NCBI GenBank assembly: GCA_000004695.1
Contig: CM000151.3
Coordinates: 4,288,001 to 4,352,000 of the forward strand
DNA length: 64,000 nt
Direction of reading: 5' to 3'
Source: Dictyostelium discoideum
Taxonomy: Eukaryota
Made by a program: the position numbers and the translations under genes. Positions 23,743 to 52,830 of this stretch are shown here, in pieces. The number at the start of each line of letters is the position of its first letter. Positions within the stretch are counted from its first letter, which is position 1. The notes beneath the pieces are model-generated. The model was not told where the DNA came from and ran no database searches. It worked only from the letters and a program-made list of their open reading frames with translations.

Positions 23743-23747
<5 letters not shown>

Positions 23748-26700
23748 TTAAATCAGTTTGACAAAGTGGACAATTACTTTTATGACTAGTTTGGAACCAT
23801 TTATAAATACAACCAGCATGAAATTTATTCTTACAAGTTTTACATTGGAATTTTGGAATTGTACCATTGTGAAACATTGAATAACAGATTGGACAAACTT
23901 CAACACCTTGGAAATGTTTATCTAAAGAATTTTTCCAAAGTAAACAAGCATCTAAAACAGTACCATCTTGAGTTAGCAATAAAGATGTCATTGATAATAA
24001 CCATTGTCTCCATTGTGATTCTGAAACACCAACTCTCTTTGAAAATTCTACAGTTAACACACGCAATGGATAATTATCAGAGATGAAGAGTACTAATGAA
24101 ATGGTCATTTCATCTTTTTCATAAGAGGCAGTAACCTCTTTACTTGAGGTTGAACCTTTAATTTGGAATTTAGCATCACTACTATCGCTATCAGTACAAC
24201 GATAAGAATTTACTCTTTGAATTTCATTTTGAATGATAATTGGACTAATGAAACGAGTGATATAACTTTGAATTTGTTGATTCATTTTAGAATTGGTTGA
24301 ATTATCATCAGCCCATCTACGTACCATACTTGGTAAATAATTAACCAATGAATAAAAACAATTTGAACATAATTTTTGAATCATTCTATAAGTAATTAAT
24401 TGATCATTATCAATAATTGAAAATGGAAATTCAATTGAATAATTATTACCATTATTATCGGTTGTTGTTGTTGTTGTTGTTAATGGTGATTCATCTTTAT
24501 TAATAAATGGGAATATTTGATTTAAGAACAATGTAACTTTTTGAATATTATTATCATTTAACCAACCATTTAAAATTGAACGTCTATTTAAATCAATCTT
24601 TGAATAATTTAATAATAATAAATTCCAACACATTAATTGACCCATTGAAATACTATTAATTAATTGATTATCTTTTGATTTCTTCATTGGTTTAAATGTT
24701 GAATCGAAATCTAATAAAATCTTTTCAAATATATTACTAAATAAAATAAAACTAACTTTTTCTTCACCATCATCGTTGTTGTTGTTGTTGTTGTTGTTTT
24801 CATTTTCTAATAAGAATGATTTCACTAATTGAGTATTTTCATTACCAAAATAAGATTCCAATAAATTGTAAGAAGTTTTCTTTATACCTTTATTATTATA
24901 AATACTTGTACTATAATTAAATGTTGATAATAATTCAATTAAATTATCTAATTTAGTTAATGATATCTTATATTTTATATCATTCGACATTTTCATAAAT
25001 GTATTTGAATATAATTCTAAAATATAACTTGAATCACTTGTATTACCATTATTATTATTACTTCTACTATTACTAACTCTATTTAACCAATTATTTAAAA
25101 TTAAAATTGAATGATCAATTTGAAATTGATCACCAATACCTGGTATTATAAATTTAATATTATCATTTGAAATTATAATATTATAAATTTTCAATGATTG
25201 ATATTCAATTAAATTACGATATTGTTGATAATAATAATTTGATTTAAATTTATTGAATGATAGTAATGTGAAATTATTTGATAACCAAATTGATAAAAAT
25301 GATTGAACAAATTGTGATTGGTTATTTGATAAATAAATTGGTTGTTTTGATTTATTCGAATTTATATTGGAAATGTATTGAATAACAATTAAAATGAAAT
25401 TCAAACAAGAGAGTTCAACCTCTTTCATAAATAAAAATTCAAGTTCAGGTTCTTGTTGTTTAATAATTGCACTTTTAATCTTTGAATTCCATTGTTGAAT
25501 AGTTTGAATTAAATTTAATAATGTTAACCATTCTTTTTCCTTTAATATTTCATTATCATCTTGTGTAATTTGTTGTTGTTCTTTTTGTGATTGTTGATGT
25601 TGTTGCTGTTGTCTTTGAATAACTATTGATGATAAAATTGATAATTGAATTGAAATGGATTTAAAATTTGTTGGAATTGAACTTGATAATTGACTTAATT
25701 GATTAATTGACCATTGTTTATAAGATTCAATTGATTCTTTTTGTAAAATTGGTAATAAAATTTGAACTAAATTCAATTGTCTAATTGAATCAATTGAATT
25801 ACCATTATCATCATTATCAATCTTTATTGAATTTAATAATGCTGATTTCAATTTCATTGATGATGTTGGTAAACAAGCATCACTTGTAATATAATCAATG
25901 AATAATGCCAATAGAACGGAATAAATACCACCATTATTACCATCACCACCAACATTTGATACTAAACAATTGAACCAATTACAATTGAAAATTTCGTCAC
26001 CATAAAATTTAAACAATGATTCAATAAATTGATTTAATAAATTTGTTGAATTATTTTCAATAAATTCTAAAATTTGTTCATTTGTTGACACTACTACTGC
26101 TGTTGTTATTGTAGTGGTGGTGGTGGTGGTTGTGGTTGGAGTTGGTGGTAATTGATTATCTCCATTAACGAATAATAAATTTAATAATAATAATTCAATG
26201 CTGTTATTATTTTCTTTATTAGAATATTTAATGAATTTTTCTAAACCAAACGATTCAATAACTTTAAAGTTAAAAATTAAAACCTTTAATAATTTATCAG
26301 TTGAGAAAGTGGTGCTATCGTTATTGTCTTTGTTGGAACCATAATTATCTAATAAATAAAATGGTGTAATTCTATTGTATCTAAACCAAGATATTTTAAT
26401 TTGATCTTTTGAATTGATTACTAATTGATTTGAAGTAAACTCTTTTATGAAATAAGAATACAATTGATCGTCGTCATCATCATCATCACCATTTTCATCA
26501 TGACGGTAGCTACCACTTTTAATTAATTTAATAGCACAATTTGATAAAAAATTTAAATTTAAATTATCATTTGTAATGATAGTACTACTATTTCTATCAA
26601 TGGATTCAATTAATAATGATAAAATGAATTTATCATTTTCAATGTTTGAAGTTGTTGAGAATAGATATTCATCAATTGAATTACATTTTGATTTAAAACC

Positions 26701-28863
26701 AGATAAACTTGGACGATTATTAATTTCAATATTAAATTTACACCATTCAATTAATAATGATTCTAATGATTTTGATTTAAATCTTGATGAAAATAATAAT
26801 TTTGATAATTCAACTAAATAATCAATTGAAACATCATTATCATCACTATCATCATCATTATTATTATCGCCGCCTTTATCATTATCATTAAATACTAAAT
26901 TTAATTGTACCATTGTATTTATAATATCAACCAATTTATTATAAACCCATTTAATTAATAATTCAACTGATTCATTTGGAATTATTGGTGAGAATTCATT
27001 ATTATTATTATTATTATTATTAAATAAAATTGATTTAATTAATTGTAATTGTTTTTTATCTTGAATTTTAATTGATTTAAATAATGTAGTTGATAATAAT
27101 AAATTTCTATTGATTTTATTACTTGCACTATTAATTAAATGAACTAAACTATTTGTTGTATTTGTAATTAAATTTGATCTATTATTTTTCTTTTTACTAT
27201 TATTATTATTATTATTAATTGAATCTAAAAATATTTGTAAAATTTGAGACCAAATTAATTTGATTTCATCTTCATCAGGAACTAAAGCTAACAATCCAAC
27301 TATAACTGAAACTAAATCTCCACCAACTCCTAAATTTAAACCACCTGTTGATAAAAGTGATTCATTTAATGCCAAAGCTAATTGAGTTATTATTTTTTTA
27401 ATATCATCTAAACCATTTGAAATGATTTGATCAATTTTATAATTTCCTAAAATAAAATCTAAAATTTTAATTGATAACTCTTGATTACTATTTAAATTAT
27501 CACATGCTAAATTAAATAGTCTTTTTATAATTACTTGAATAACATTATTATTATTACTATTATTACTATTGTTATTATTTGAACAAACAATTATAAATGT
27601 ATTTAATCTTGAAATTAAAGTTTCTTTTGAAATTGGTTGAATTATTTTCTCTTGTTTTTTAATTATTGGACTACTGTTATTATTATTATTATTATTATTA
27701 TCAGTAGTGATTGGTTCATTATTATTTAAAAGATTTTCTTTATTATTAAAATTTATAAAACTATTTGAATTAAATAAATTTTGAATTTTTAAAAGATTTG
27801 AATTTGATAAATTTGCAAGTTTAATTGTAGATTCTAATAATTTTTCAATGAATAATTTTTCAGAGAAACAAGAATGTTCCAAATTGAAATGATTATTATA
27901 AAAGTTAAATAATAATGTATCGATTAAGTAATCATTGATTTGTTGATATTGTTGACCCCATTTCTTACTCGAATAAATTAAACATTCCAAATAACATGAT
28001 AATAATAAATTGGAAGGTCTATCAACACTATTAGGATTACCATATTGTCTTGGATTATCAACAACTTCTAAACCCTTTTCTAAATTTGTGAATAACTCTT
28101 TAAAGAAACCGATATCAATATTTGTATTTGGTGATGGTGATGGTGATGGTGATGGCGATCCAATTACAATTGAATTTGGAATAAAAGTTAATAATGGCAA
28201 AATTGAAGGATAGGATAATTCAAAAGAACCATAACAACCAGATCTGAGGAATGCCCATAATCTTGGTAATACATGTTTACGAACATCAACATTACTCCAT
28301 GCTTTGTCACCATATTGCTGTAAGAATGATATTATGGCATCCCACATATAAAGATGAGTTGATGAATCTTTCTCTGAAAATAATCCTAAAACTTTACTAC
28401 TAAAATCTTTGAAATTCTTTTCGACATATCCTGCTAACTTTTTAATAACAGTTGTCAATACTCTATATGCTGTCTTTCTAATATTTGAACTCTTTGATTG
28501 AAAAAATGAAAAAAATTGTGATTCAAATATTTTTTCATAAATTTCTGTATTACCTGTATTATTTGTAGTTGTCGTTGTTGTAGTTGTTGATGATGATGAT
28601 GATGAATCAGTTGCTGTTGCTGTTGTATTATTAATTAAATACTCAATTGCTAATAATGAGTTTGAAATACATCTTTCATATCTCTCTTGTAAGATTTCTT
28701 GGCTAATTGATTTACTATCACCAATAGTTTGTGGTGTCTCTTGTAAATTCTCACATAAATAAGTTAATGCTTCATCATGTCCAAATTTAAAAACATCTTT
28801 TCTTTTCTTTTCTGGGAATATATTCTATATATATAAATATTAAAAATAAGTATGTATACAATA

Positions 28864-36544: not shown

Positions 36545-37835
36545 ATGTCAAGCACACCAAATAATAATAATAATAATAAGTAAGTATATTTCATGTTAAA
36601 AAAAAAAAAAAAAAAAAAAATAAATAAGTAAAATAATAAAAACTCATATTAATCTTTTTTTTTCTTCTCACCAAAATTTATTTATTTTATTATTTAAATA
36701 GGGCAGAAAATCAAGCCGATTTCGTAGATGAAGAAGAATGGGCATTTGTAGATCTATGGGATAAATATGATCAAAATCTTTTAGAGAGATTTTGGAATGA
36801 ATTAGTTAAAACAACTTTTAACACTTCAGATATTCAGCCATTGAACGATTGGAATAAAGCAATGTCACCAGAGGCTCATAATAATCCTGATATTCCAGAT
36901 TTACACATATTATTAGCTTTTAAAGCAAGTGATTTGGAAACAATTAAAAATTCAACAGAGGCATTTACAACTACAAATACCTCACCAAGAAATACTTCCA
37001 CAGGTGATAGCAATACAAATACATTTAATACTGGTGGTAGCGGTAGTAGTGGCAATAGTACAACAAATACAACCCCTACTACACCAATTATAGTTACAAC
37101 ATCAAATAGTATTAATATACCAACTAAATTAACCTCATCAACAAGTAGTACATTGATACCAACAGCTATACCAGTTGCAACTCCAACAACTCCAACAACT
37201 CCAACAACAACAGCAACCCCAGCAATTCCAACAACAACAACAACAACACCAAAATCACCAATTTCAGATGACTTGGAATTGTCATCATCATCTTCTTCAA
37301 CTATGAGTAGTATTGATTCAAATTCAACATCATCATCAGCTGTAATTAGTCCAACACCAATTCCATTCATCAATACAAGCACAAACATTTCATCATCACC
37401 ATCTTCAACAATTGTTAGTACTCTAGGTAAAGTAACACCACCACAGATTTTAAATAATCGTACTCAAATTATTGCTGGTGTAATTTTTGAATATTATTCA
37501 AATATTAATTGTGGTTTATTTTTACATATGATTATTCAAAAAAAATTTAGAAATATGGTAAGTAAAAATTTAAATAATTTTTTTGTTGTTTTTTTTTTTT
37601 TTTTTAAAATAAATATTAAATTTTTTTTTAATTTATTACTATTATTTTTAGGGATTAGAAGGATTATTAGTTAAAAGAGCAATTGAAATTTTAGATAAGA
37701 ATGCACATTCTCATGGTCATTTAGCAGGTTGTAATGCAATTTTCTTTGAAACTAAATCAGCATCAAATCCAGCTGGTACCAGTACCAGTACCAGCACCAG
37801 TACTAGTACTAGTACTAATTCTAGTGGTAGTAGTA

Positions 37836-37934
<99 letters not shown>

Positions 37935-40900
37935 GTAATAATAATACTTTATGTGTATCTACAAGTGGTGGAAGTAGTCATCAAGATATTAATAAAATTG
38001 ATCCAAGACAACAACATTCAATTTTACATAAGATTGGATTTAGATTAGTAGATTTTGATTATACAAAACTACCATTAAAGAGATTAGGTAAATCAAATAA
38101 TCTCCTATTGACAGTTTATCTTTCGCCACATATACCATCACAAAGTAGTTTAGATGGTGATAAATATTATTTACCATCAGTATTATTAAAGAATTTCGTA
38201 TATGACCTTTGGGATACATCTTATTTGACAGAAAAAGTTAATAGAAAACCAGATGAAGATCCAGAATATGGAAGAGCATTGGAACAAATCGAATTACGTG
38301 AAAAGATACCATTGTTAGATTTACCATGGGGTGCAGGTAAACCATGGACATTAGTTGACCTCTATGAGGATTATGATGAAGAATTATTGGAACGTTGTTA
38401 TAGAGAAGTCATGGTACCAAGTGTGAAACATAGTGAAATTCCTTCACTTGGTAACGTTTTAAGGGCAATGTCTCCCGAGGGTGATGATTCATCCTATCTA
38501 CCAGATGTTCATGTCCTTTTAGCAGTACGTTGGCCAACTGATTTCCATAAGGATGGCAATTCATCATCGCCAATCATCGATGGTCTTTGTGTTTTCGAAT
38601 ATCATACCGAACAAAATTGTGGAATACTCACTCATTTAATTTTACAAAAAAAGAATAGAACATCATTGAATGATGGTTTGGATAGTTTATTAGTGGATAG
38701 TGCCGTAGATATCCTTGATACCAATGCAAGAGAACGTGGTAATTTGGCAGGTTGTAATGCAATTTTCATTCATATTAAAAATGCCCCAACTTCACCAGTT
38801 AGTCCAGATGTTGTTGATATTTGTCAACATCATATGGTATTATATAAAATGGGATTCAAACTTTTAGACTTTGATTTCTATATACCACCATTGGATTTTC
38901 ATTCAGCACCAAAGAAAATGATGTTAGGTTTATTCATTACACCATTGATCCCAAAATCAAATGAAAAAGGTGATCGTCCATTCATTCCATCAAATCTATT
39001 GAAATTATTTGTTGAACTTCAATGGAATAATGCTTTTGGTTCAGAACAAATTAAGAATTCACCAAATACCTACTTGGAATATCAACGTATGATTGAACAA
39101 ATAGAATTACGTGAACGTATTTCATTATCGGATTTACCATGGGATGCAGGTAAACCATGGACATTGGTTGATCTATGGGAAGATTATGATCAAGAGTTAT
39201 TGGAACGTCTATACAAAGAGATTATGATACCAAACTTTTCAAATAAACACGAATTGGAACCATTGGATAATTGGTTACAAGCATTTACTTCAGAGAATCG
39301 TGATGATCCAAACATTTCCGATCTTCATATACTATTGGCACTTAGATGGAGCGATAATAGTTCACAACCAATCATTGAGGGTGTTATCATCTTTGAATAT
39401 TTCTCTGCAAATAATTGTGGTCTATTAACTTATTTAATCGTTCAAAAAACATTTAAAGGTAAAGGTTTGGATAGAATCCTCGTGGAAACAGCAATTGAAA
39501 TCCTAAATCAAAATGCAAAGAGTCAAGGTTTCCTTCCAGGTTGTAATGCAATCTTTTTGGAGGTTTACAGTGGTGAAAAGGTAACTTTGAAACAAGATGT
39601 AGTCGATCCACGTATGAGACATTCCATCTATCATCAAATTGGATTTAGATTGATAGATTTCGAATATGTTGCACCACCATTAGCTTTGACTTATCCAAAG
39701 TTAAAACATTTCCTTCTCACAGTTTATCTTACCGAACATATTCCAAAGATGCCATTGGAGGAGGGCAAATATTATTTACCAAGTAGCGTTTTAAAGAATT
39801 TTATCACCGTCCTTTGGAAGAATGCAATTGCAACCAAGAAAATCATTAAACAACCACAAAGAGATTCAGATTATGTTAGAATGGTCGAACAGTTTGAGTA
39901 TCGTGAAAAAATACCATTGTTAGATTTACCATGGGGTGCAAGTAAACCATGGACATTGGTTGATCTTAGAGACGATTATGATGAGGATCTTATGGTACGT
40001 TTTTACAATGAGTTGATGTTACCAAATTTCCCAGTGAAAAATGAATTGGAACCATTATCAAATTTCATTAGTGCTCTCTCTGAAGAGAGAAGAGAATCAT
40101 TCAATCCACATTTATCAGAGGTTCATGTTTTATTGGCATTGAGATGGCCAACCGATTCATCCGATTTACAACCAACCATTGGTGCTGGTATTATTTTCGA
40201 ATATTTTTCAAATACCAATTGTGGTTTACTTTCCTATTTGGTGGTACATCGTTCTTCAAGAGGTCAAGGTTTGGCTGGTATTTTGGTTGAACGTGCAGTG
40301 GAACTATTGGATAAACATGCAAAAACTCGTGGTCAATTGGCTGGTTGTAACTGTATTTTCTTGGAAACCAATTCTGCTGAAAAAGTAACCGTACAACAAG
40401 ATGTTATGGATCCACGTATGAGACATACTATCTATTATAAAATGGGTTTCAGAATGATCGATTTCGAATATATTATGCCACCACTTTTTCAAGGTTTTGA
40501 AAAATTACGTGGTGTACTCTTATTGACAGTTTATTTAACTCCTCATATTCCCTATCAAGATGTCAATGGCAAGAAACAATACTATCTACCAAATGTTTTA
40601 TTAAAGAATTTCATCTCTTCACAATGGGAGAATGCATTCCGTAATTCACGTCTCTCTGTTAGACCAAGTCAAGATATCGATTTCACAATGTCATTGGATC
40701 AATTGGAGATTAGAGAACGTGTACCACTATTGGATTTACCATGGGGTGATGGTAAAGATTGGATGATAGTTGACCTTTGGGAAGATTATGATCAAGAGTT
40801 ATTGGATGCTTTCTATAAAAAGTATATGATCACTCAGTTTGGTACTTCCGATGAATTAGAACCATTAGAGAATTGGCATAAAGCTCTCTCAACCGAGGGT

Positions 40901-42064
40901 CGTGATGATCCTAATATTTGCGATCTTCATGTCCTATTAACATTGGGTTTGCCAGGTGAACATAAAGGTAAAGGTCATAAATATATCATTGGTGGTTTGG
41001 TTTTCGAATATTATCCAGAGACAAATACAGCATTGGTCACTTACTTGGTTGTAAATCAACGTTGGTCCGGTAAAGGTATTGGTACTGACTTAATTTTACG
41101 TACTCTCACAATTCTCGATCAAAATGCAAAACAAAAAGGTCATATAGCCGGTTGTAATGCAATTTTCTTGGAAGTTATGTTCTTACCACAATCGGGTGAA
41201 TCAGACTCTTCATTGAGTCATGTTTTCCTTTTCAATAAAGGTTTCCGTTTATTGGATTTCGAATATTATCAACCACCAACCTCTTTAAGAAATCCAAAAT
41301 CAAATAATGTTTGTTTAACCGTTCTATTGACTCCACGTATTCCAAAGCATGGTGTTGGTAGTGAAATTCAACCATTTGTACCATCTTCTTTGTTACGTTC
41401 ATTCATTACAACTCTATGGGAAGATGAATGTGGTTTAATTGGTTATAACTTTGAATCTGATCCATGTTACCTTAGAATGATGGAACAATTGGATGGTAAT
41501 GATTATTTCCATTGTTTAGATTTACCTTGGATTAAACATAGAATCGATCAAAATTCAATCAATCCAAATAATTCCACTCTACCACATATAAACTTTTCAA
41601 ATTCTTTTAATAATTTAAATATTAGTTATTCATCACCAAATCCTGTACATTTAAGAGATTTTAAAAATCAACAACAACAACAACAACAACAACAAGTACA
41701 ACAATTACAACAACAAGTACAAAAAGTACAACAATTGACAGCTGGTACTAATTTAGGTGGTAATAGTTTAAATTCAAGTGGTAGTATTTATAATAATAGC
41801 GGCGATAAAAAATCATCACTACCACCATTACCAAATCCAAATAACCTTAGTAATAATTATGATAGTGATCATCTTACAAAGAATAAAAATTTATTAAAAG
41901 TTTCAACACCAGATGGCAATAGTTCCTCTGCTCCTGGTTCACCAATTTTATCTCCTCAATCAATGAATTCAGTTTTCCCACCAAACGCTCCTTTATCACC
42001 TGCTCTTTATCCTTCAAATTTAAGTAATTCAACATTGGCCCAAAGAGTTACATTGGATAAATAA
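36545..42064 (+). CDS. Giant protein with 5 complete plus 1 partial tandem GNAT-fold (acyl-CoA N-acyltransferase-like) modules. join(36545..36579, 36702..37557, 37652..42064), 1767 aa.
   Basis: ORFs 36841-37674 and 38108-42064 are joined by a GTAAGT...tttttag intron (phase 0), and a short first exon MSSTPNNNNNNK joins via aa|gtaagt...aaatag|g. Each module of about 260 aa carries DLPWG(A/D)GKPWTLVDL(W/Y)EDYD(E/Q)ELLER, then EPL.NW, DPNI.DLH(I/V)LLALRW, IIEGxIIFEY(F/Y)...NCGLLTYL(I/V)V, then an R/Q-x-x-G-x-G/A motif-A region (SRGQGLAGILVERAVELL; SGKGIGTDLILRTL), then GCNAIFLE...DPRMRH.IY.KMGFR.IDFEY..PPL and LLTVYL.PHIP. This matches GNAT beta4-alpha3 (motif A), motif B (Y.K.GF) and the terminal beta strands. 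There are long S/T/P-rich and poly-N (37846-37930) insertions in module 0 and a Q/N/S-rich C-terminal tail. Confidence 0.7.
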
Positions 42065-42519: not shown

Positions 42520-44238
42520 TTTTAATTTTAAATGTAAAAGTTAAGAAACTAACAAAACAATTAAAAATTTATATATAGTTCAGATGCAGGTGAAGCATTA
42601 TTCTTATCAAACTATTTAGATGACCACAAAACCGCAAAACAGAAATCTTGTGTTGATATTGGTGCACCTTTTCAATCATGTGATAAATTATTAGAGATTG
42701 ACTCTAACCTCAGAGATACAGAAGATTTCTTTACATTCACTGGTTTCATCACTGTAAATGAAACTTATAATAGTAATACTTTCTTTTGGTTTTTAGAATC
42801 TCAAAATGGTGATAAAAACTCACCCTTAGTTATCTTTTTACAAGGTGGTAAGTATTTTTATTTTTATTTTTATTTTTATTTTAAAAACAATTTAAAATGT
42901 ATATTAATATTATTTATTTATATTTATTTATATAAAAAAAAAAAAAATATAAAATAGGTCCAGGTGGTGCATCAACTTTTTCACTTTTTGTTGAAACAGG
43001 TCCATATGAACTCCTTGATAATTTCACTTTAGTACAAAGAGAAATTACATGGAATTCAGAATTTGCAATGTTATATATTGATAATCCAGTTGGTACTGGT
43101 TTTTCATTTACTGACTCTCAAGAGGGTTATTCAAATAATGAAGATGAAATTGCAACAAATTTATACACCTTTTTACAACAATTTTATAAACTTTATCCAG
43201 AATATTACACAAATGAATTATATATAACTGGTGAAGTAAGTACAAATCAAATATTTAACATTTTAATTCAATTTTAATACTAATTTTATAAAATAATAAT
43301 AAATAATAAATAATAAATAATAAATAATAAATAATAATTATTTAGAGTTATGCCGGAAAATACATTCCAGCATTTTCATATCACATTATCCAACAAAACC
43401 AAAACTCAAATAATCCAAATATTAATCTTAAAGGTATTGCAATTGGTGACGGTTTATGTGATCCAATTACCCAAGTAACTCAATATGCAAACCTTGCATT
43501 CTATACTGGTTTAGCTGATCTCCAACAACAAGAAGTTATGTTTGAATATCAAGATAAAATTGTTGAAGCAATTAATCAAGAACAATGGTCAGTTGCAAAC
43601 GATTTATTCACTGATTTAATTAATGGTCCACCAGATTATTTCCAAGTAAATATATAGTTTTTTTTATTTCCTATTCTTATATAAATGATTAATTAGTTTT
43701 TTTTTTTTCTTTTTTTTTTTTTTAAAATAAGAATATTACAGGTGAATCAGATTATTATGATATTCGTAAAACTGTTGAACCAACATATGGTGGTGATTTT
43801 ACAGCATTTTTAAATCAATCTTCAATTCGTGCAATGATTCATGTTGGTAATAATTATTTTCAAAATAATAATGATGTTTACATTCATTTAGAACAAGATA
43901 TTCCAAAATCAGTTAAACAATTATTCCCAACCATTTTAGATAATATTAAAGTTATTTTATACAATGGTCAATTTGATTTCATTGTTGGTCCATCTCTCAC
44001 AGAAACAATGATTCGTACTATTGAATGGGAAGGAATTCAACCATTCTTAGAATCACCAAAAATCATTTGGAAAATTCCATCAGATAATGTTGATGTAGCC
44101 GGTTTTGTTAGACAATGGAATAGTTTCACTCAAGTTGTTGTACGTCAAGCAGGTCATATGGTACCTTTGGATCAACCTGCACGTGCTTTTGATATGATAG
44201 ATAGATTTATTAACAATGAACCTTTTCCATCAGGTTAA
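42307..44238 (+). CDS. Serine carboxypeptidase (peptidase S10 family), secreted. join(42307..42455, 42579..42847, 42958..43235, 43346..43645, 43741..44238), about 497 aa. The last acceptor could alternatively be at 43732.
   Basis: Signal peptide MKVSLSFLLTILIVIITIKVNLS. S10 motifs: PLVIFLQGGPGGAS across intron 2, LYIDNPVGTGFSF, the catalytic-Ser motif ITGE|SYAGKYIP across intron 3, and the catalytic-His region VVRQAGHMVPLDQP. Four introns with GTAAGT/GTAAAT donors; all phases close. Confidence 0.85.
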
Positions 44239-44351: not shown

Positions 44352-45848
44352 TTATAATTCAACAAATCCAATATTTGATGGCTTTGATTCTATACCATTA
44401 TAACTTGTAACAACAATACTATATTTTCCATAAGGTATATTAAACATTTTTGTTATGAATTCTGAATTAATTGATCGTTTAATTTTATATCTTAACCATG
44501 TATTATCTGATCTACTGATATAAACAAAGTATTTGATTTTTTGATTACTTTTTTCACTTTTAAAGGAATTTGATTTAAAAGTGATTGATACATCCATATT
44601 AAAATAATATTGTTTTTCAATTGTACAATTGATAATTTGAGGTGGTAATAATTGTTCAAGTTGATTGGTAAATGATAAATTATAAGTTAAGGAGTAATTT
44701 CCATAATCAAGATTATGGTTTTCAACAATAATATAAACATGTTTACCATTTGCTGTCATTCTTAATTGCCTATTATCATTTGATCTATCAATAATAGTGG
44801 TTAAACTTTGACCATATCTAATATTACAACTTCTCATTGAACTATATTTATAATAATTATAAGCTTTTCTTGATTCTAATAAACATATTGAATAGGTGAA
44901 TGGCATAACTCTATTAGCTATTGGATTTATTGACATTGTAATTTCCGTATTACCCTTAACATCACAAGAATATTGATGATATTGATTAAAATTATTATTA
45001 TTAAAACCATTATCTTTTTTAAAATTACAATAATTATTACAAGGTGAATAATCATCATTTCTTAAAAATTCTAAATATGAGTCTAAAAAGTGTAATTGGT
45101 TTATTGATTTAATTTTTTCAATATTATTTTTCAAATAAATTGTATTGTTAATTGAATGTTTAAAAATTGTATTTGAAACGTATGGGTCTGTTATTCTAAT
45201 AGTATCATTATAATATGAATTTACATATCTACGGTAGGTAAATTTATTTATGTTTTGTTTAACATAATCTAAAAATTTATCATCACCAATTGCAGGTTGG
45301 CCAAATGTTACACATGTAATTGATTTTATATATTTTTCATTAAAACGTTGAATTGAGATATCTAAAGTTGCAAAAAATGCAATTACACCGCCAACTGAAT
45401 GACCAGTAAAATAGATATCATAGGGTTTCTCACATGAATCAATAATGCTATATAATTGAATATATAAATCATAATATTCACCTTGAAAACCATTACGAAC
45501 TTCACCACATCCTTTTGGATCAATATAACAATCAACTTTGAAATAATGGGCATTATCTTCGATATTAATTGAATTGTATTCTTTAAATGAAATTATTAAA
45601 TTATTGGTAATGGATGATTTATATGCTAAAATCTTAGAATTATCCAATACAACCTCCCATTCCAAACAATTGTTTTTATCACCTAAAGAAATAAATTGAT
45701 TTTGTTTAACTGCTAATGGATCATATATTAAATCTGAAAAGTATGCAAAAATATAATCTCCATTTTTACCAATTATTGAACTATTTGATCTTTTAAGATT
45801 TATTAATAAATTTATTATCAATATAAAAACTATTGTTTTAAAAAACAT
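44352..45848 (-). CDS. Secreted class-3 (fungal-type) lipase-like protein with C-terminal Cys-rich region and FN3-like domain, tandem paralog 1 (498 aa).
   Basis: Signal peptide MFFKTIVFILIINLLINL. The Lipase_3 nucleophile elbow is YFTGHSVGGVIAFFATL (GHSxG), followed by CVTFGQPAIGD. The C-terminal tail is YSIVVTSYNGIESKPSNIGFVEL. Intronless. Confidence 0.8.
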   Translation of the reverse strand: MFFKTIVFILIINLLINLKRSNSSIIGKNGDYIFAYFSDLIYDPLAVKQNQFISLGDKNNCLEWEVVLDNSKILAYKSSITNNLIISFKEYNSINIEDNAHYFKVDCYIDPKGCGEVRNGFQGEYYDLYIQLYSIIDSCEKPYDIYFTGHSVGGVIAFFATLDISIQRFNEKYIKSITCVTFGQPAIGDDKFLDYVKQNINKFTYRRYVNSYYNDTIRITDPYVSNTIFKHSINNTIYLKNNIEKIKSINQLHFLDSYLEFLRNDDYSPCNNYCNFKKDNGFNNNNFNQYHQYSCDVKGNTEITMSINPIANRVMPFTYSICLLESRKAYNYYKYSSMRSCNIRYGQSLTTIIDRSNDNRQLRMTANGKHVYIIVENHNLDYGNYSLTYNLSFTNQLEQLLPPQIINCTIEKQYYFNMDVSITFKSNSFKSEKSNQKIKYFVYISRSDNTWLRYKIKRSINSEFITKMFNIPYGKYSIVVTSYNGIESKPSNIGFVEL

Positions 45849-46241
45849 TGTTTATTGACAATTAAAATAACACTTGGGTTTTTTTTTAATTTTATATTTT
45901 GTGTGGTTGTGTGTGTTTATATATTAATTAAAAATAAAAATTAAATAAAATTCTCTGTAAATATCCCTATCAATATTAATTATACAAAATTTTAAATCAG
46001 AAAATCTAAATTTAGATCTTAATTACATTTCTTTTTTAATTAAAAATAATAATTAATGAAAATAAAAAAATAAAAATTTCATCATTTAATTTATTAATAT
46101 TAAGTAATCTTTTAAGTGGTGTTTTTAGAAAATTTAATTAAAAGATTTTTAGTAATTTACTAAATTATCTATTATTTTATTTATTTAAAAATTAATGATT
46201 CAGATTAGTTGTTAAATCATTTTTTTCTTTATAATTATAAT

Positions 46242-47810
46242 TTATTTCAGAGTATTTATAAATGCAATATTGGAGGGTGAAGATTGGATATCATTATATT
46301 CTGAAAAAACAACTATACTATATGCTCCTTTTGGGATATCATCTATAGTTTTTGAAAAGTAATTATTATTTTGGTGTGGTCGAATAATTGTCTCTTTATA
46401 TTTTTTCCAGTTTTGCCCAATATTACTAATGAATATATTATATATTGTATTATTAAAATTGTTGTTATTATTATTATGATCTAAATCATTGATACTAAAA
46501 TTAACTTGTAATTTAATAAGATCGTTTTTTATTTCTAAAATATCAGCTGTTAAATTTGTTGGTGGATTTGGAGTTTGATATGGGCTCTTTATTGAAATAT
46601 TATAAGAAAATGAGGATGTCCCTAAAATTGAGTTATGGTTTTCAACTACAACAATAATTTCATTTAAATTTTTAATTCTTTTTGAAACTGATCTAAAATG
46701 TTCTGTCTTATCTACCATTGTTATTGGTTGTTTATAATCTTTATAGTAATTTAAATTACAACTACTAAATAATGTAAAATCATAGTGTTTAAATTGATTC
46801 CTTGATGTAAATAAACATACAGAGTATTTATCAGGTAGAATACCTTTTGGATTAAATTCACCATTGAAAATACATTCATTTTTAACCATACAATGATATT
46901 CTTTAAATTTTGAAAATTTTGCATTCTTTTCAACAAATTTACAATTAGTATTACATTGTGAATAATTTGGATTAAATGTATTTAATAGGTAAAGATCTGA
47001 TGAATGTAAACCCAATGGAAAATTGGGACAACTGTGTTTTTTACAATTTAAAACAATTATTGATTCATCTGCGACCTTTGGATGATAAACATTAAATATT
47101 GACATTATTTCAACAACAGGATCTTCATGATACTTTTTAAAATCAGATGAACGATGTTTATGATTATTAATATTAACGTATCTTCTATAATTTATTTTTT
47201 TAATTGATGATAAAAACAATTTATTAAATTGTTCATCTCCTACTGCAGGCTGACCAAATGTTATACAATTAATAGATTCAATGTTTTTTAAATCATTTTG
47301 ATAAGAATAATATACTGAAGCTAATAATGCAACAGCACCACCAGCCGAATGACCAGTAAAATAAATATCATATGGTTGGTCTAATGATTTTATTATTGAT
47401 AACATTGTATTTTGATTAAAATAAAATTGATCTTGAAAACCAAAATGAATTTTACCACATTCAATATTCCATGGTTTTAATAAAAAACAAGAAATTAATT
47501 TTAAATCAATATCAGATGCAAAATCTTTAAAATAATGAGTTCCTTGAATTGAAATAACCAAGTTATTCGTATATTTTGATTTAAAAATCATCATTTTATT
47601 TTCATTTACAATTATTTCCCATTCTTCACATTCACCATTAATTTTTATTAATTCAAATTTTGAAAATTCTTTATTATTTGTTTTATATACTAAATTTGAA
47701 AAGTAAGCAAATATATGATCTCCATCTTTATTTATTTTTGAAGATAAAATTAAATTTATAAAAATTAATTTAAATAATATAATTATTAAAAATTTTATTT
47801 TAAAAAACAT
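46242..47810 (-). CDS. Secreted class-3 lipase-like protein, tandem paralog 2 (522 aa).
   Basis: Signal peptide. YFTGHSAGGAVALLASV, CITFGQPAVGDEQF, and a C-terminal FN3-like YSIVVFSEYNDIQSSPSNIAFI. Confidence 0.8.
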   Translation of the reverse strand: MFFKIKFLIIILFKLIFINLILSSKINKDGDHIFAYFSNLVYKTNNKEFSKFELIKINGECEEWEIIVNENKMMIFKSKYTNNLVISIQGTHYFKDFASDIDLKLISCFLLKPWNIECGKIHFGFQDQFYFNQNTMLSIIKSLDQPYDIYFTGHSAGGAVALLASVYYSYQNDLKNIESINCITFGQPAVGDEQFNKLFLSSIKKINYRRYVNINNHKHRSSDFKKYHEDPVVEIMSIFNVYHPKVADESIIVLNCKKHSCPNFPLGLHSSDLYLLNTFNPNYSQCNTNCKFVEKNAKFSKFKEYHCMVKNECIFNGEFNPKGILPDKYSVCLFTSRNQFKHYDFTLFSSCNLNYYKDYKQPITMVDKTEHFRSVSKRIKNLNEIIVVVENHNSILGTSSFSYNISIKSPYQTPNPPTNLTADILEIKNDLIKLQVNFSINDLDHNNNNNNFNNTIYNIFISNIGQNWKKYKETIIRPHQNNNYFSKTIDDIPKGAYSIVVFSEYNDIQSSPSNIAFINTLK

Positions 47811-47942
47811 TTTTAATTTAAATAATTATATAATTTTTTTTTTTTTATTTTTTTTAAATAATTATTTTTATTTTTTTTTTTTTTCTGAACATTTAAAAAT
47901 AATTATTTTTATTCCACGTTTATAAAAAAAAAAGTCTTTTTT

Positions 47943-47976
<34 letters not shown>

Positions 47977-48030
47977 TTAAAAAATAAATAAAAATAAAAT
48001 AACAGATTTAATAATTATTTATTATAAATT

Positions 48031-49566
48031 TCAAATTATTTTATTTTTATTATCTAATCCATTAACAAAACAATAATTAGAAGTTTTGGATTCTATTCCA
48101 TTATCACTTGTAGATACAATACTATAAAGACCATCTTTTTTAAGATTTTTTATAATTTCATTTAATTCTATTTTTGATAATGGTTCAACAAATTCATATT
48201 TAATCCAATCTTTTCCAATTTCACTTAAATAAATATTATATTTCATTGTTGGTTGAATTAATGAAATAGTATTATTTGATTTGAATGAAACTGAAATATC
48301 CATTGAATTTTCATTTGTTGAAATTATTTTACATGTTAAATTATTTGGTGGTTGTGGTACTTGAATTGTACTAATGAATGAAATATTGAAAGCAAGAGTT
48401 GAAGTTGAAAAGAATAAATTATGATTCTCTACAATTATAAATAAATCAGAACCAGAAACAGTCATTTCAAACTCCATTGCATTTGTTGTTTTATCAATTA
48501 AAATATTAGATTTACCACCACAAATATTATTTTGACTATATTCATATTTATTAAAATCATCTTTATTTGTAAAAATACAAACTGAATATTTATCAGTGAA
48601 AAAACCAGAACCTGGATAAAAGTGACCTTTAATTGTCGATTCTGAAGATGATGGACAATGATAAACTTGTTTTTTTGTAATTTTTGGATTTTGGAATAAA
48701 AAATTACAATTTGAATTACATTTTGAATATTTATCATTATAAAGTTTATCTTTATAAAGATCCAAGAAATGTAAACCTAAAGAGTAATTTGGACAATCAT
48801 TATTACAATCTAATAGAATTGGACTATTATTTGGATGTGGTACCGATAAGAAATTCACTACTGGATCTTCAATGGTTTTATTATTATTTAATTGTGCAAT
48901 ATTATTAATATTAATATAACGACGATACTGAAATTTATCTAATTTTAAATTTGCAAATTTATTAAATTCAAAATCACCAATTGAAGGTTGTCCAAAAGTT
49001 ATACAATTAATAGAATGAATTATATTGAGATCTTTATGATTTGTAACATAATCCAATGATGCTAATAATGCAGTTGAACCACCTAATGAATGACCAGTGA
49101 AATAAATATCATATTGTTGATCTAATTTTTTAATTGTTGATAAAAGTAATAAACTAATTTCATTATATTTCTCTTGAAATCCATTACGAATCTTTCCACA
49201 ACCGCCACCTCTACCACTACCACCACCACCCCATAAATCATTATTTACTATTAAATTACAATTTGAATATTTGATATCTAAATCAGCTTTTATATCTTCA
49301 ATACTGCTTGTACCTTTGAATGAAACCACAACAGTATTACTAAATTTTGATTTCCAAATATCCATTCCACTACTATCAATTATAATTTCCCATTCCATAC
49401 ATTTCTCATTCAATTGTAAATATTCATTTCCTGTTATCGGTCCATAAACTGTATCTGAAAAATATGCAAATAAAAAATCACCTTCTTTTTTAATTATTGA
49501 ACAATTTATAATTGCAAGTATAATTAAATTTATAAATAATAATAAAGTTATTTTAAAATTTAACAT
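48031..49566 (-). CDS. Secreted class-3 lipase-like protein, tandem paralog 3 (511 aa).
   Basis: Signal peptide. YFTGHSLGGSTALLASL, CITFGQPSIGDFEF, and a Gly-rich insertion WGGGGSGRGGGCGK before the lipase core. C-terminal YSIVSTSDNGIESKTSNYCFV. Confidence 0.8.
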   Translation of the reverse strand: MLNFKITLLLFINLIILAIINCSIIKKEGDFLFAYFSDTVYGPITGNEYLQLNEKCMEWEIIIDSSGMDIWKSKFSNTVVVSFKGTSSIEDIKADLDIKYSNCNLIVNNDLWGGGGSGRGGGCGKIRNGFQEKYNEISLLLLSTIKKLDQQYDIYFTGHSLGGSTALLASLDYVTNHKDLNIIHSINCITFGQPSIGDFEFNKFANLKLDKFQYRRYININNIAQLNNNKTIEDPVVNFLSVPHPNNSPILLDCNNDCPNYSLGLHFLDLYKDKLYNDKYSKCNSNCNFLFQNPKITKKQVYHCPSSSESTIKGHFYPGSGFFTDKYSVCIFTNKDDFNKYEYSQNNICGGKSNILIDKTTNAMEFEMTVSGSDLFIIVENHNLFFSTSTLAFNISFISTIQVPQPPNNLTCKIISTNENSMDISVSFKSNNTISLIQPTMKYNIYLSEIGKDWIKYEFVEPLSKIELNEIIKNLKKDGLYSIVSTSDNGIESKTSNYCFVNGLDNKNKII

Positions 49567-49790
49567 TTTAAAAAAAACAATTATTAATAGAATATTATTA
49601 AAAATTATAATTGGTAATTAATAAAAAATATTTTATTCTATTTGAAAAAAAAAAAAAAAAAAAAAAAGAAACATTTTTTTCAATACGAATTATTCTTTTT
49701 TTGTTTTATGTAAATAGGTACAATTGTAATTTCTAAATTTTTCTTTTTTATTTTAAATTTTTAATATATTAATATGATAGCTTACATGAA

Positions 49791-49828
<38 letters not shown>

Positions 49829-50138
49829 AATATGGTAATTACTACTTATTTATCATTTATTTAATCTCTATGAATCTAATAAATTTTAAAATAATTACTA
49901 TATCAAAATTTTACACACATCCACAAAAAAAAAAAAAAAAAAAAAAATGAAAAATGAAAAACAGAAATAAAAAAATAAAATAAAATTTTATACAAATAGG
50001 GTTTTGTTACTAAAAAAAAAAAAAATTAAAAAAAAAAAAAATAAAAATAAATTTTAAAAAAATTTAAGGGAGTTGTATAGGGAAATAAAAAAAAAAGTAA
50101 AAAAAAAAGAGGTAACTACTGACCAGTCCTCATAGAAT

Positions 50139-50220
50139 CACTTTTTACCACTTTAATTCCGAAATTATTATGTCTGGATGGACCATTTTTTTTCACTTTT
50201 TACCACTTTAATGGTGAAAT
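50139..50220. repeat. Two direct copies of the ACTTTTTACCACTTTAAT motif, 55 bp apart (50139-50158 and 50194-50214).
   Basis: cactttttaccactttaatt and cactttttaccactttaatgg, read directly. Confidence 0.6.
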
Positions 50221-50682
50221 TTTTTTTATCCGACCAACCTTATCATCCTTTTATTTTTAATTTTCTTTTTTTAATTTTACCATAAAAATATGTTCACATT
50301 TAATTGGAACATATGTATATTTTCCATTTTCCTTAATCAGGTATAATTTTATCAATATCTTGAGTACCAATAGTTTTGAGTCATATTGATTCCTTTTTTT
50401 TTTTATTTTTTTTTTTTAATTATTTTCTTTTTTTTTTTAATTTTTTATTTTTTTATATTTTTGAAATTTTACCCATTATTATATTATATTTAATTATTAT
50501 AATTTATTAATAACTTTATCCTATTTTATTTTATTTTATTTTATTTTACTTTTGTTATTTTTAAAATTTATTATATATTACAATATAATTATATATAAAT
50601 AAAATTTTTTTTATTTTTTTTGGACAAAAAAAAAAAAAAATAAAAAATGTTTTATTAATTTTTAATTAAAAAAAAAAAAAAA

Positions 50683-50785
50683 AGTGCTACTAAATTTTTA
50701 ATTAATTAAAAAAAAAAGTGCTATTAAATTTTTAATTAATAAAAAAAAAAAGTGCTACTAAATTTTTTATTAATTTAAAAATAAA
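50683..50785. repeat. Tandem repeat, 3 x about 34 bp (agtgctactaaatttttaattaattaaaaaaaaa), in the ORF-free gap within the lipase array.
   Basis: Three consecutive copies with 2-3 substitutions, read directly from the sequence. Confidence 0.8.
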
Positions 50786-51160
50786 AAAAATACTCAAAAC
50801 CTTAAATCTAAATCTCACAAATAAATTGTTTAATTAATCAAAAAAAAATAATAATAATAATAAACCTCATACAATAATATTAGTTTGCCAGCAAAAAATT
50901 GTAAAATTAAAAAATAATAAAAATAACAAAATATAAGAGTTTTTTTCTATTTCAAATACAAAAAATATTCTTTAAAATTTTAATTTATTCACTATTTTTC
51001 CAATTATTTTATTAATATATAAAAAAACTAATTTCTTATTTTCATGAGTGGATAGAATAAAAAAATTTAAACTAAATAGATATTAATCAATAGAATATAA
51101 GAATTAAATCTTGATTATTTTATTTGTTTTTTTTAATTTTATTTTCCCAAACATTAATTG

Positions 51161-51192
<32 letters not shown>

Positions 51193-51291
51193 GTTTGTGG
51201 TGGGGGTGATAATAAAAATAATAAATCTATTTTTTTTTTTTCAGATTAAATAATTTTTTTTAATTTTTTATATTTATATATTTAAAATAAT

Positions 51292-52830
51292 TTAAATTAA
51301 TGTTGAATTACCAAAAATGTAAGCAAAATTAGAAGCATGTGATTCAGCTCCATTGTCAGCAGTAACAACAATACTATAAATTCCATTCATCGGAATGTTT
51401 AAAAATTTTGAAACAAATTTAGTTGTTGCAGATTCAATGAATTCAAACTTTGACCATTCTTTACCAATTTCACTTAAATAAACCCTATATATAATTAAAT
51501 TATATAAACTATAAATGTGTTGTGGTAATTGGTGATAGTTAAAAGAGACCATAATACCAATTGTATCATTTTTTAAAGATGACACAGTACAAGATAAATT
51601 TGTTGGTGGTGAAGGTGCAGTAATTGAATTTGTAAATGTGATATTATAAGAGAATGACGAAGTTGCGAATAAATTATTACGATTTTCAACAACCACATAT
51701 AACTCTTTGCCTTGTAATACCTTTTTTTCAAACATAGTTCTATTTGATGTTTTTTTAATTATAATTGAAGTTGCATTTGAATTTGTACCTGATTTCAAAT
51801 TACAATCAGTTGATTGTTTATATTCATATTGATCGAAATCTTGAGCTGAAGTGAATAGACACACAGAATATTTATCAGGCATGATACCTTGTGGATTGAA
51901 TGATCCCTTGATTAAAGACTCCTTATTTATTGGACATTTGTAGGACTGATATTTATAAATATTTGCATTGGATTCTTCAAATTTACAATTTGAACTACAT
52001 TCCGAATAATGTTGATTAAAAACATTACCCAAATATAAATCCATGAAATGTAAACCCAGTGGTACCATTGGACACCTGGTTTTTAAGCAGTCCAACATGA
52101 TGGCATTGGTTGGGTGTGAGAATATTGAATTTGGGATGGGATCTTCTTGAGGTGATAGACCGAGTATGGCCGTTTTACTATTATAATTTACATAACGACG
52201 GTATTGGAATCTTTGGGAGTAAAACATCAAACTGTTGGAAAACTGCTCATCGCCCACAGCCGGTTGACCAAAAGTAACACAGTGGATTGATTTAATGTAT
52301 TTTTGTTTTTGTCTTTGATTCACTGTATAATCATAGGCGGCAATCAATGCCAATGCACCGCCTAGTGAATGACCGGTGAAATAGATATCATATGGTTGAT
52401 CTAGTGATTTAATAATTGATAAGAGGATATCATAAGTTTCGTAATACTCTTGTTGAAATCCATAATGAAGTTTACCACATCCACTTGTAATATTACATGT
52501 TGTTGGTACAATTTTAATATCTGTAATAATATCTGAAAATCCTTGTGTACCTCTAAAAGAAACTATTAAATTATTACTAAATTTCGATTGAAATATCATA
52601 ATTCTACTATGATCTAATATTATTTTCCACTCCATACATTCTCCATTTAATGAAATGTATTTATATTGTTCACTATTGGTATTTGTTGATTTTGGCATAT
52701 AAACAATATCTGATAATAATCCAAATAAATAATCACCATCTTCTTTTATAATTGTTCCATTATTAAAATCTATTAGATAATTTAAAATTAATAAAAATAT
52801 AAATAAAATAATTTTAATTTTAAAAATCAT
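51292..52830 (-). CDS. Secreted class-3 lipase-like protein, tandem paralog 4 (512 aa).
   Basis: Signal peptide. YFTGHSLGGALALIAAY, CVTFGQPAVGDEQF, and a C-terminal YSIVVTADNGAESHASNFAYIFG. Confidence 0.8.
   Translation of the reverse strand: MIFKIKIILFIFLLILNYLIDFNNGTIIKEDGDYLFGLLSDIVYMPKSTNTNSEQYKYISLNGECMEWKIILDHSRIMIFQSKFSNNLIVSFRGTQGFSDIITDIKIVPTTCNITSGCGKLHYGFQQEYYETYDILLSIIKSLDQPYDIYFTGHSLGGALALIAAYDYTVNQRQKQKYIKSIHCVTFGQPAVGDEQFSNSLMFYSQRFQYRRYVNYNSKTAILGLSPQEDPIPNSIFSHPTNAIMLDCLKTRCPMVPLGLHFMDLYLGNVFNQHYSECSSNCKFEESNANIYKYQSYKCPINKESLIKGSFNPQGIMPDKYSVCLFTSAQDFDQYEYKQSTDCNLKSGTNSNATSIIIKKTSNRTMFEKKVLQGKELYVVVENRNNLFATSSFSYNITFTNSITAPSPPTNLSCTVSSLKNDTIGIMVSFNYHQLPQHIYSLYNLIIYRVYLSEIGKEWSKFEFIESATTKFVSKFLNIPMNGIYSIVVTADNGAESHASNFAYIFGNSTLI

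Follow-up and report, generated by a model that had tools for sequence, protein, structure and literature searches.

Why would one protein carry the same acetyltransferase fold five times in a row and keep the complete cofactor-binding loop in only one of the five copies? The question is raised by a gene of Dictyostelium discoideum that encodes a chain of GNAT modules and lies on the + strand at 36545-42064 of the 64,000-nucleotide stretch analysed here (contig CM000151.3 of assembly GCA_000004695.1, positions 4,288,001 to 4,352,000, hereafter "the window"). An initial annotation of this DNA, made from its letters alone, had seen an array whose C-terminal modules are catalytic and whose N-terminal modules are pseudo-enzymes, kept to bind substrate or to serve as scaffold or else left behind by relaxed selection after duplication. 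In other words, which of the modules is the enzyme, and what could the others be doing there?

We argue that the fourth module, M3, is probably catalytic, that M0, M1 and M2 are probably conserved pseudo-GNATs that do not bind coenzyme A (CoA), and that M4 is ambiguous, and to this combined reading we give a probability of about 55%. Part of the earlier picture survives: the loops do differ systematically, M3 is probably catalytic and M0-M2 look non-catalytic. The tidy division into C-terminal and N-terminal halves is not supported as drawn, since M4 has lost the Arg/Gln of its loop, an Arg of helix alpha4 and a D-V-M-D-P stretch.

Five Modules and One Complete Loop

Self-alignment and a module hidden Markov model (HMM) both divide the protein into five tandem modules, M0 to M4, of ~265 amino acids each, rather than the six that had been counted. 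In each module the GNAT core is extended at its C-terminus by two helices and a terminal strand that are specific to the family. The cofactor-binding element of the fold is a six-residue loop whose backbone amides hold the pyrophosphate of CoA at the N-terminus of alpha3 (PMC4964394). A loop of the form Q/R-x-x-G-x-G/A at the start of alpha3 is found in M3 alone, and the array as a whole does not conform to it.

Read along the + strand, M0 (36730-38341, residues 22-527, interrupted by an intron) has the loop R-N-M-G-L-E at 37549-37557 plus 37652-37660; M1 (38342-39151, residues 528-797) has L-N-D-G-L-D at 38666-38683; M2 (39152-39946, residues 798-1062) has K-G-K-G-L-D at 39455-39472; M3 (39947-40753, residues 1063-1331) has the canonical R-G-Q-G-L-A (R1167-A1172) at 40259-40276; and M4 (40754-41536, residues 1332-1592) has S-G-K-G-I-G at 41066-41083. 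All five retain the central Gly, and it is position 6 that separates the modules, being E (Glu300), D (Asp641), D (Asp904), A (Ala1172) and G from M0 to M4. M2 is near-canonical except for Lys899 at position 1 and Asp904 at position 6. M0 is longer than its neighbors because it carries two low-complexity inserts, one rich in Thr, Ser and Pro in the beta2-beta3 loop (~36949-37450) and one in the beta5-alpha4 loop (~37763-37945), where a run of Ser and Thr leads into poly-Asn encoded by an (AAT)n tract; both are missing in the ortholog of Heterostelium album that is described below.

The five peptide strings on which the initial annotation was built all exist in the sequence, and what has changed is how some of them are to be read. 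The S-R-G-Q-G-L-A-G of M3 is canonical as claimed, although it stands at 40256-40279 rather than at about 40240-40270. The W-S-G-K-G-I-G-T of M4 (41063-41086), which had been called canonical too, does keep its G-x-G but has Ser where Q or R belongs; of the two modules once credited with a canonical motif A, only M3 has it complete. Asp does replace the last Gly/Ala in the K-G-K-G-L-D-R of M2 (39455-39475), and the Glu in the R-N-M-G-L-E-G of M0 is just as real, but that string spans an intron (37549-37557 plus 37652-37663) and lies upstream of 38100-41300, the range within which the motifs had been placed. As for the R-T-S-L-N-D-G-L-D of M1 (38657-38683), said to have no Gly spacing at all, its G-L-D aligns column by column with the G-L-D of M2, and the spacing appears lost because of a three-residue T-S-L insertion (38660-38668).

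The Fold and the Register of the Motif

Any such argument depends on having the loop in the right place. The AlphaFold model of M3 (predicted local distance difference test score 89.8, predicted template modelling score 0.87) shows the elements in GNAT order, beta1-alpha1-alpha2-beta2-beta3-beta4-alpha3-beta5-alpha4-beta6-beta7, with the loop (local residues 105-110) between beta4 (92-100) and alpha3 (109-127), and M4 has the same GNAT topology in a two-module model. A profile-to-PDB alignment, itself weak, sets the R-G-x-G-L-A of the family on the Q-G-Q-G-L-G of yeast GNA1 and the R-G-H-G-I-A of Naa30; these are the best profile matches in the PDB, and neither is significant (expectation values, E, of 0.49 and 0.7). 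A direct search of the PDB with the M3 sequence (phmmer) returned nothing relevant, and by these sequence and profile searches the family of M3 has no solved structural relative. Model and alignment together place motif A where it had been read, and the mis-registration that had been feared is not borne out.

The Pfam family Acetyltransf_1 (PF00583) matches the whole open reading frame at 51 bits and the single modules at 22.7 bits (M3), 19.7 (M4) and 17.4 (M2), which leaves M3 above the gathering threshold of 20.7 bits and M4 and M2 below it; M0 and M1 have no Pfam GNAT match at E <= 10. Only generic GNAT families of Pfam match, and we found no sign of membership in the N-terminal acetyltransferase subfamily (Naa10/20/30/50/60). 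The fold does not separate classes of substrate either: N-terminal, aminoglycoside and polyamine acetyltransferases and GNA1 all score alike.

Orthologs and Selection

Is the pattern of loops more than an accident of one genome? A complete five-module ortholog, continuous in the DNA and with two introns, lies on contig GL291023.1 of Heterostelium album PN500 (our locus L001, 6672-10894); in public annotation it appears, mistakenly, as small and partly mis-spliced models, PPL_11814 (P0037) and PPL_11816 (P0011). The same five-module architecture recurs in a protein of a third dictyostelid (P0016, from EukProt), and a second homolog search, made with M2, brought no additional M2 orthologs. Module by module, the loops of the three proteins match (RNMGL[E/D], R..DGLD, KGKGLD, RGQGLA, SGKGIG). 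Because the pattern is repeated in this way in two other species, and because no stand-alone relative among the 70 counted below has D or E at position 6, it is not chance. The M1 loop differs in length between orthologs, with no insertion in H. album (R-V-D-G-L-D), two extra residues in P0016 and three here, and its geometry appears to be unconstrained.

Across the three dictyostelids, orthologous modules are 72-92% identical in amino acid sequence, as against 36-55% between paralogous modules. Relative to H. album, the nonsynonymous distance (dN) is 0.176 for M0, 0.192 for M1, 0.124 for M2, 0.140 for M3 and 0.066 for M4. The proportion of synonymous differences (pS) is saturated, at 0.81-0.95, and for that reason we report amino acid identity and the ratio of nonsynonymous to synonymous proportions (pN/pS, 0.07-0.18) instead of a strict dN/dS. 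One-to-one orthology of the modules, such high identity between orthologs, low pN/pS and loops conserved module by module, down to the Asp/Glu itself, refute the suggestion that the loops deviate under relaxed selection after duplication. The deviant modules are, by these comparisons, old, distinct and constrained. In a neighbor-joining tree of the modules the ortholog groups have 91-97% bootstrap support, and 70% support joins M3 to stand-alone modules and other canonical ones; saturated distances and long-branch attraction make the deep branching unreliable, and we draw no order of duplication from it.

Stand-Alone Relatives and the Ancestral Loop

What did the loop look like before there was an array? 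A word-indexed search turned up no more than 15 relatives, each a piece of a similar array. With the module profile, an exhaustive HMM search yielded 1119 proteins at E <= 0.001, and many of these are complete single-module proteins of 240-300 amino acids from protists (e.g., Balamuthia mandrillaris and Diphylleia rotans). All five modules match the module profile at HMM positions ~6-240, helical extension included. What is defined here is a protist GNAT family, a core with a C-terminal two-helix extension, that is uncharacterised and structurally unsolved.

We counted loop residues in 70 well-covered stand-alone, single-module relatives. Position 1 is R or Q in 57 of them and position 4 is Gly in 63, and at position 6 we find G (29), A (21), S (6), L (4), V (3), I (3) and M, T, F and Q (one each). 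Neither D nor E occurs at position 6 in any of the 70, and every seemingly single-module protein that does have D or E there proved to be a piece of an array. Since the stand-alone relatives so regularly have Gly at position 4 and never an acid at position 6, the M3 loop is, as far as sequences can tell, the ancestral state, and the acid of M0-M2 is derived and specific to the arrays.

Six of the stand-alone relatives (P0091, P0092, P0095, P0102, P0116 and P0123) continue at their C-terminus into a flavin amine oxidase domain (PF01593), a fusion that hints, for at least that subfamily, at a pathway in which amines or polyamines are acetylated and oxidized.

The D. discoideum chain is not the only one. 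Four- or five-module arrays occur on other amoebozoan-like contigs (L002-L005, P0017 and P0020), and dictyostelids have a paralogous four-module gene in Dictyostelium purpureum (DICPUDRAFT_5127, P0019) and Synstelium polycarpum (P0021), with a further example in P0018. The four-module type is also seen at L002 7914-11594 and at L004 7913-12147, and there is none in the window. These arrays usually have exactly one fully canonical loop, the fourth in the five-module type and the first in the four-module type, and their remaining loops are degenerate in differing ways; on one related contig the equivalent of M2 reads R-N-T-N-M-A, as against K-G-K-G-L-D here. The feature that recurs is, therefore, one intact loop per chain and not the acid itself.

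Residues Beyond the Loop

The loop is only six residues long, and the family offers a larger set against which to judge the modules, namely 40 positions shared by at least 60% of the stand-alone relatives. M3 keeps 33 of these, M2 28, M4 27, M0 26 and M1 23. M1 has replaced the Glu that ends beta5 (94% conserved in relatives) by His671, a position that is His in H. album and Gln in P0016, and the Tyr of beta4 (92%) has become His in both M0 (His287) and M1 (His625). The Arg that precedes the alpha4 His (90%) is present only in M2 and M3 and is lost from M0, M1 and M4. By conserved positions, beta5 Glu, beta4 Tyr and loop length alike, M1 is the most degenerate module. M4, with Ser1436 at the Q/R position of its loop and Ser in place of the alpha4 Arg, has lost both conserved Arg residues, and it is also without the D-V-M-D-P stretch.

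The Gene and Its Neighborhood

The window is AT-rich (GC fraction 0.16-0.37), and we reconstructed the gene from its GT-AG introns as three exons that encode 1767 amino acids and take in the stretch that had originally been flagged. Exon 1 (36545-36579, +) runs from the predicted Met1 into codon 12, of which it takes in the first two bases, beginning with ATG and followed by GTAAGT, and splicing to 36702 restores the frame. Exon 2 (36702-37557, +) encodes the N-terminal part of M0 and ends within its cofactor loop, after R-N-M; exon 3 (37652-42064, +) is a continuous open reading frame for the remainder of M0, for M1-M4 and for a tail, through the stop codon. The intron at 37558-37651 accordingly splits the M0 loop between R-N-M and G-L-E, and an intron interrupts the H. 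album ortholog at the identical position (AATATG|gtaaag ... cag|GGA). The C-terminal tail (41537-42061, +, residues 1593-1767) is of low complexity, rich in Q, N and S, and weakly conserved between species; the module HMM has no match past residue 1593, so that the tail holds no extra module, and no other copy of the module was found elsewhere in the window.

Immediately downstream, exon-like open reading frames of a serine carboxypeptidase (Peptidase_S10) gene occupy 43068-44238 (+), and beyond them, at 44352-52830 (-), stand four paralogous tandem open reading frames of ~500 amino acids each with a class 3 lipase domain (PF01764). Other neighbors encode a homolog of Nck-associated protein 1 (Nckap1/Nap1, of the SCAR/WAVE complex; 6044-8245, +) and a Listerin-like RING E3 ligase (23743-28458, -). 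ARAGORN found no tRNA genes in the window.

How the Array Might Work

With its complete, ancestral loop and its other family-conserved residues, M3 would bind acetyl-CoA and transfer the acetyl group. In M0-M2, an Asp or Glu would stand at the N-terminus of alpha3, just where the pyrophosphate docks and Gly or Ala is needed, and its negative charge might repel the pyrophosphate or cap its site. Purifying selection would then have retained M0-M2 to bind substrate, partners or one another, much like the second domain of two-domain GNATs. M4, which has a Gly-x-Gly backbone and lacks both Arg residues, may bind CoA only weakly, if at all; the very high conservation of the module nonetheless suggests an important role. 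Candidate acceptors are amines, polyamines among them, and the amino groups of proteins. We propose that M3 is catalytic and M0-M2 are its support modules by analogy with O-GlcNAcase and with the double-GNAT enzymes, to which we return below.

Several observations pull the other way. Bulky residues are tolerated at position 6 in 20 of the 70 stand-alone relatives, which are presumably active, so that the case against CoA binding in M0-M2 must rest on charge and not on size. Not only the central Gly but also F-E-Y, N-C, G-C-N and the alpha4 His are invariant throughout the array, and M2 departs from a canonical module almost only at Asp904 and Lys899. The most conserved module is, unexpectedly, M4 (91-92% identity, dN 0.066) and not M3, for all the family-conserved residues that M4 has lost, as would fit M4 being the functional core. 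AAC(2')-Ic and PseH, moreover, bind CoA despite atypical loops (PMC4964394).

How far do these points carry the alternatives? If M3 and M4 were both catalytic, with M0-M2 again as pseudo-GNATs, one would understand why M4 is under the strongest constraint of all, why it retains Gly at positions 4 and 6, the beta4 Tyr and the beta5 Glu, and why its Pfam score comes so near the cut-off. We nonetheless hold this to be unlikely, if worth keeping in mind: the residue that Ser replaces in the M4 loop is exactly the one missing from the inactive central GNAT of Eis (PMC4964394), the alpha4 Arg and D-V-M-D-P are gone, motif B has Phe at a position that is Tyr, His or Gln in relatives, and more distant five-module relatives have a fully degenerate sequence at the place of the M4 loop (E-R-A-N-L-A in P0017 and Y-R-A-S-L-A in L003). 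A bolder version would have all five modules bind acetyl-CoA and work as a multi-site enzyme, with the Asp/Glu tolerated or used to tune affinity. The central Gly and the many core residues kept everywhere, the purifying selection on every module and the atypical loops that can bind CoA (PMC4964394) all suit such an enzyme, and we still think it somewhat less probable again, given that 70 stand-alone relatives yield no acid at position 6, that M0 and M1 give no Pfam GNAT signal, that M1 has lost its beta5 Glu and suffers loop indels between close orthologs and that a negative charge in the loop abolished acetyl-CoA binding in experiments with O-GlcNAcase and OgpAT (PMC3814719). More doubtful by a small step is the idea that the acid loops of M0-M2 have been repurposed for a cationic ligand (a polyamine or a basic peptide), which would make the chain a multivalent "reader-writer" whose three or four pseudo-GNATs position the substrate for M3; the canonical module being fourth in one type of array and first in the other, such an architecture would have arisen at least twice within Amoebozoa.

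One could also give up on catalysis altogether and regard the whole protein as a scaffold of GNAT folds, a position to which the family lends some color in that no member has a shown activity and none of its relatives is solved or characterised. We consider this quite improbable. M3 cannot be told apart from the stand-alone relatives at its loop and at 33 of the 40 conserved positions, it clears the Pfam GNAT threshold, and the arrays of several lineages consistently keep one canonical module, a regularity that is difficult to account for unless cofactor binding is selected for. The decay of redundant duplicates, finally, might seem to be written into M0 and M1, which carry low-complexity inserts and evolve two to three times faster than M4 (dN 0.18-0.19 against 0.066), and it is hardly credible in the face of one-to-one orthology at 72-92% against 36-55% identity, of a pN/pS of at most 0.18 (with synonymous sites saturated), of a conserved acidic residue and of reading frames with neither frameshifts nor stop codons. 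We are left preferring a catalytic M3 assisted by M0-M2, with M4 ambiguous.

Comparison with Known Systems

A literature search on Dictyostelium GNAT arrays, on fusions of GNATs with polyamine oxidases and on an Esa1 loop mutant found no study of this gene or family. Tandem GNATs with one dead domain are known, to our knowledge, only as two-domain enzymes: MshD, Eis, N-myristoyltransferase (NMT) and NAT16. Inactive partner GNATs are, then, an old acquaintance, and what is new is a conserved chain of five modules in which one loop alone is intact, together with its four-module paralog.

Among the double-GNAT enzymes (MshD, Eis, NMT and NAT16), the usual arrangement is one active domain and a partner that contributes to the substrate site (PMC4964394; PMC12219266). 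The sequence pattern of one fully canonical loop per array, here and usually in the related arrays, would fit such a division of labor. In double-GNAT folds, ORF14 included, the two domains pack as a pseudo-dimer that shares one sheet and has its active site at the interface. MshD, the mycothiol synthase of Mycobacterium tuberculosis, resembles our array in having tandem GNATs, one of them catalytic and the other retained for its part in forming the acceptor site (PMC4964394), but it is bacterial, it has two domains and not five, both of its domains keep the loop and bind acetyl-CoA, and no sequence relationship to the array can be detected. Eis, the mycobacterial aminoglycoside acetyltransferase, sets an active GNAT beside an inactive one that has lost the Q/R of its loop, with the substrate pocket between the domains (PMC4964394). 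Unlike the array, it is built of two GNATs and a sterol-carrier-like domain and assembles into hexamers, and its defect is the loss of Q/R, as in M4, and not the gain of an acid. NAT16/HisAT and N-myristoyltransferase are eukaryotic, like the array, and have two GNAT folds of which typically one binds acyl-CoA (PMC12219266).

For the acid itself, a precedent is the C-terminal pseudo-acetyltransferase domain of human O-GlcNAcase, which has Asp in its loop and showed no acetyl-CoA binding by surface plasmon resonance; when its loop was grafted into the active homolog OgpAT, binding there was abolished (PMC3814719). The precedent is imperfect, and its imperfection must be counted among the points against our reading: the Asp of O-GlcNAcase is at loop position 2, where Pro and Ser follow it, and two further loop residues are changed along with it, whereas the array has its acid at position 6 and retains the central Gly. 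O-GlcNAcase is, besides, a glycosidase with a single GNAT-fold domain, not homologous to the array beyond the fold.

Set against these systems, the five-module chain with one intact loop extends a theme so far played with two domains, and the amine oxidase gene fusions of its relatives offer a lead towards amine or polyamine metabolism. Taken together, the four- and five-module chains present a natural series of pseudo-enzyme states (M2, M4, M0 and M1) within one polypeptide.

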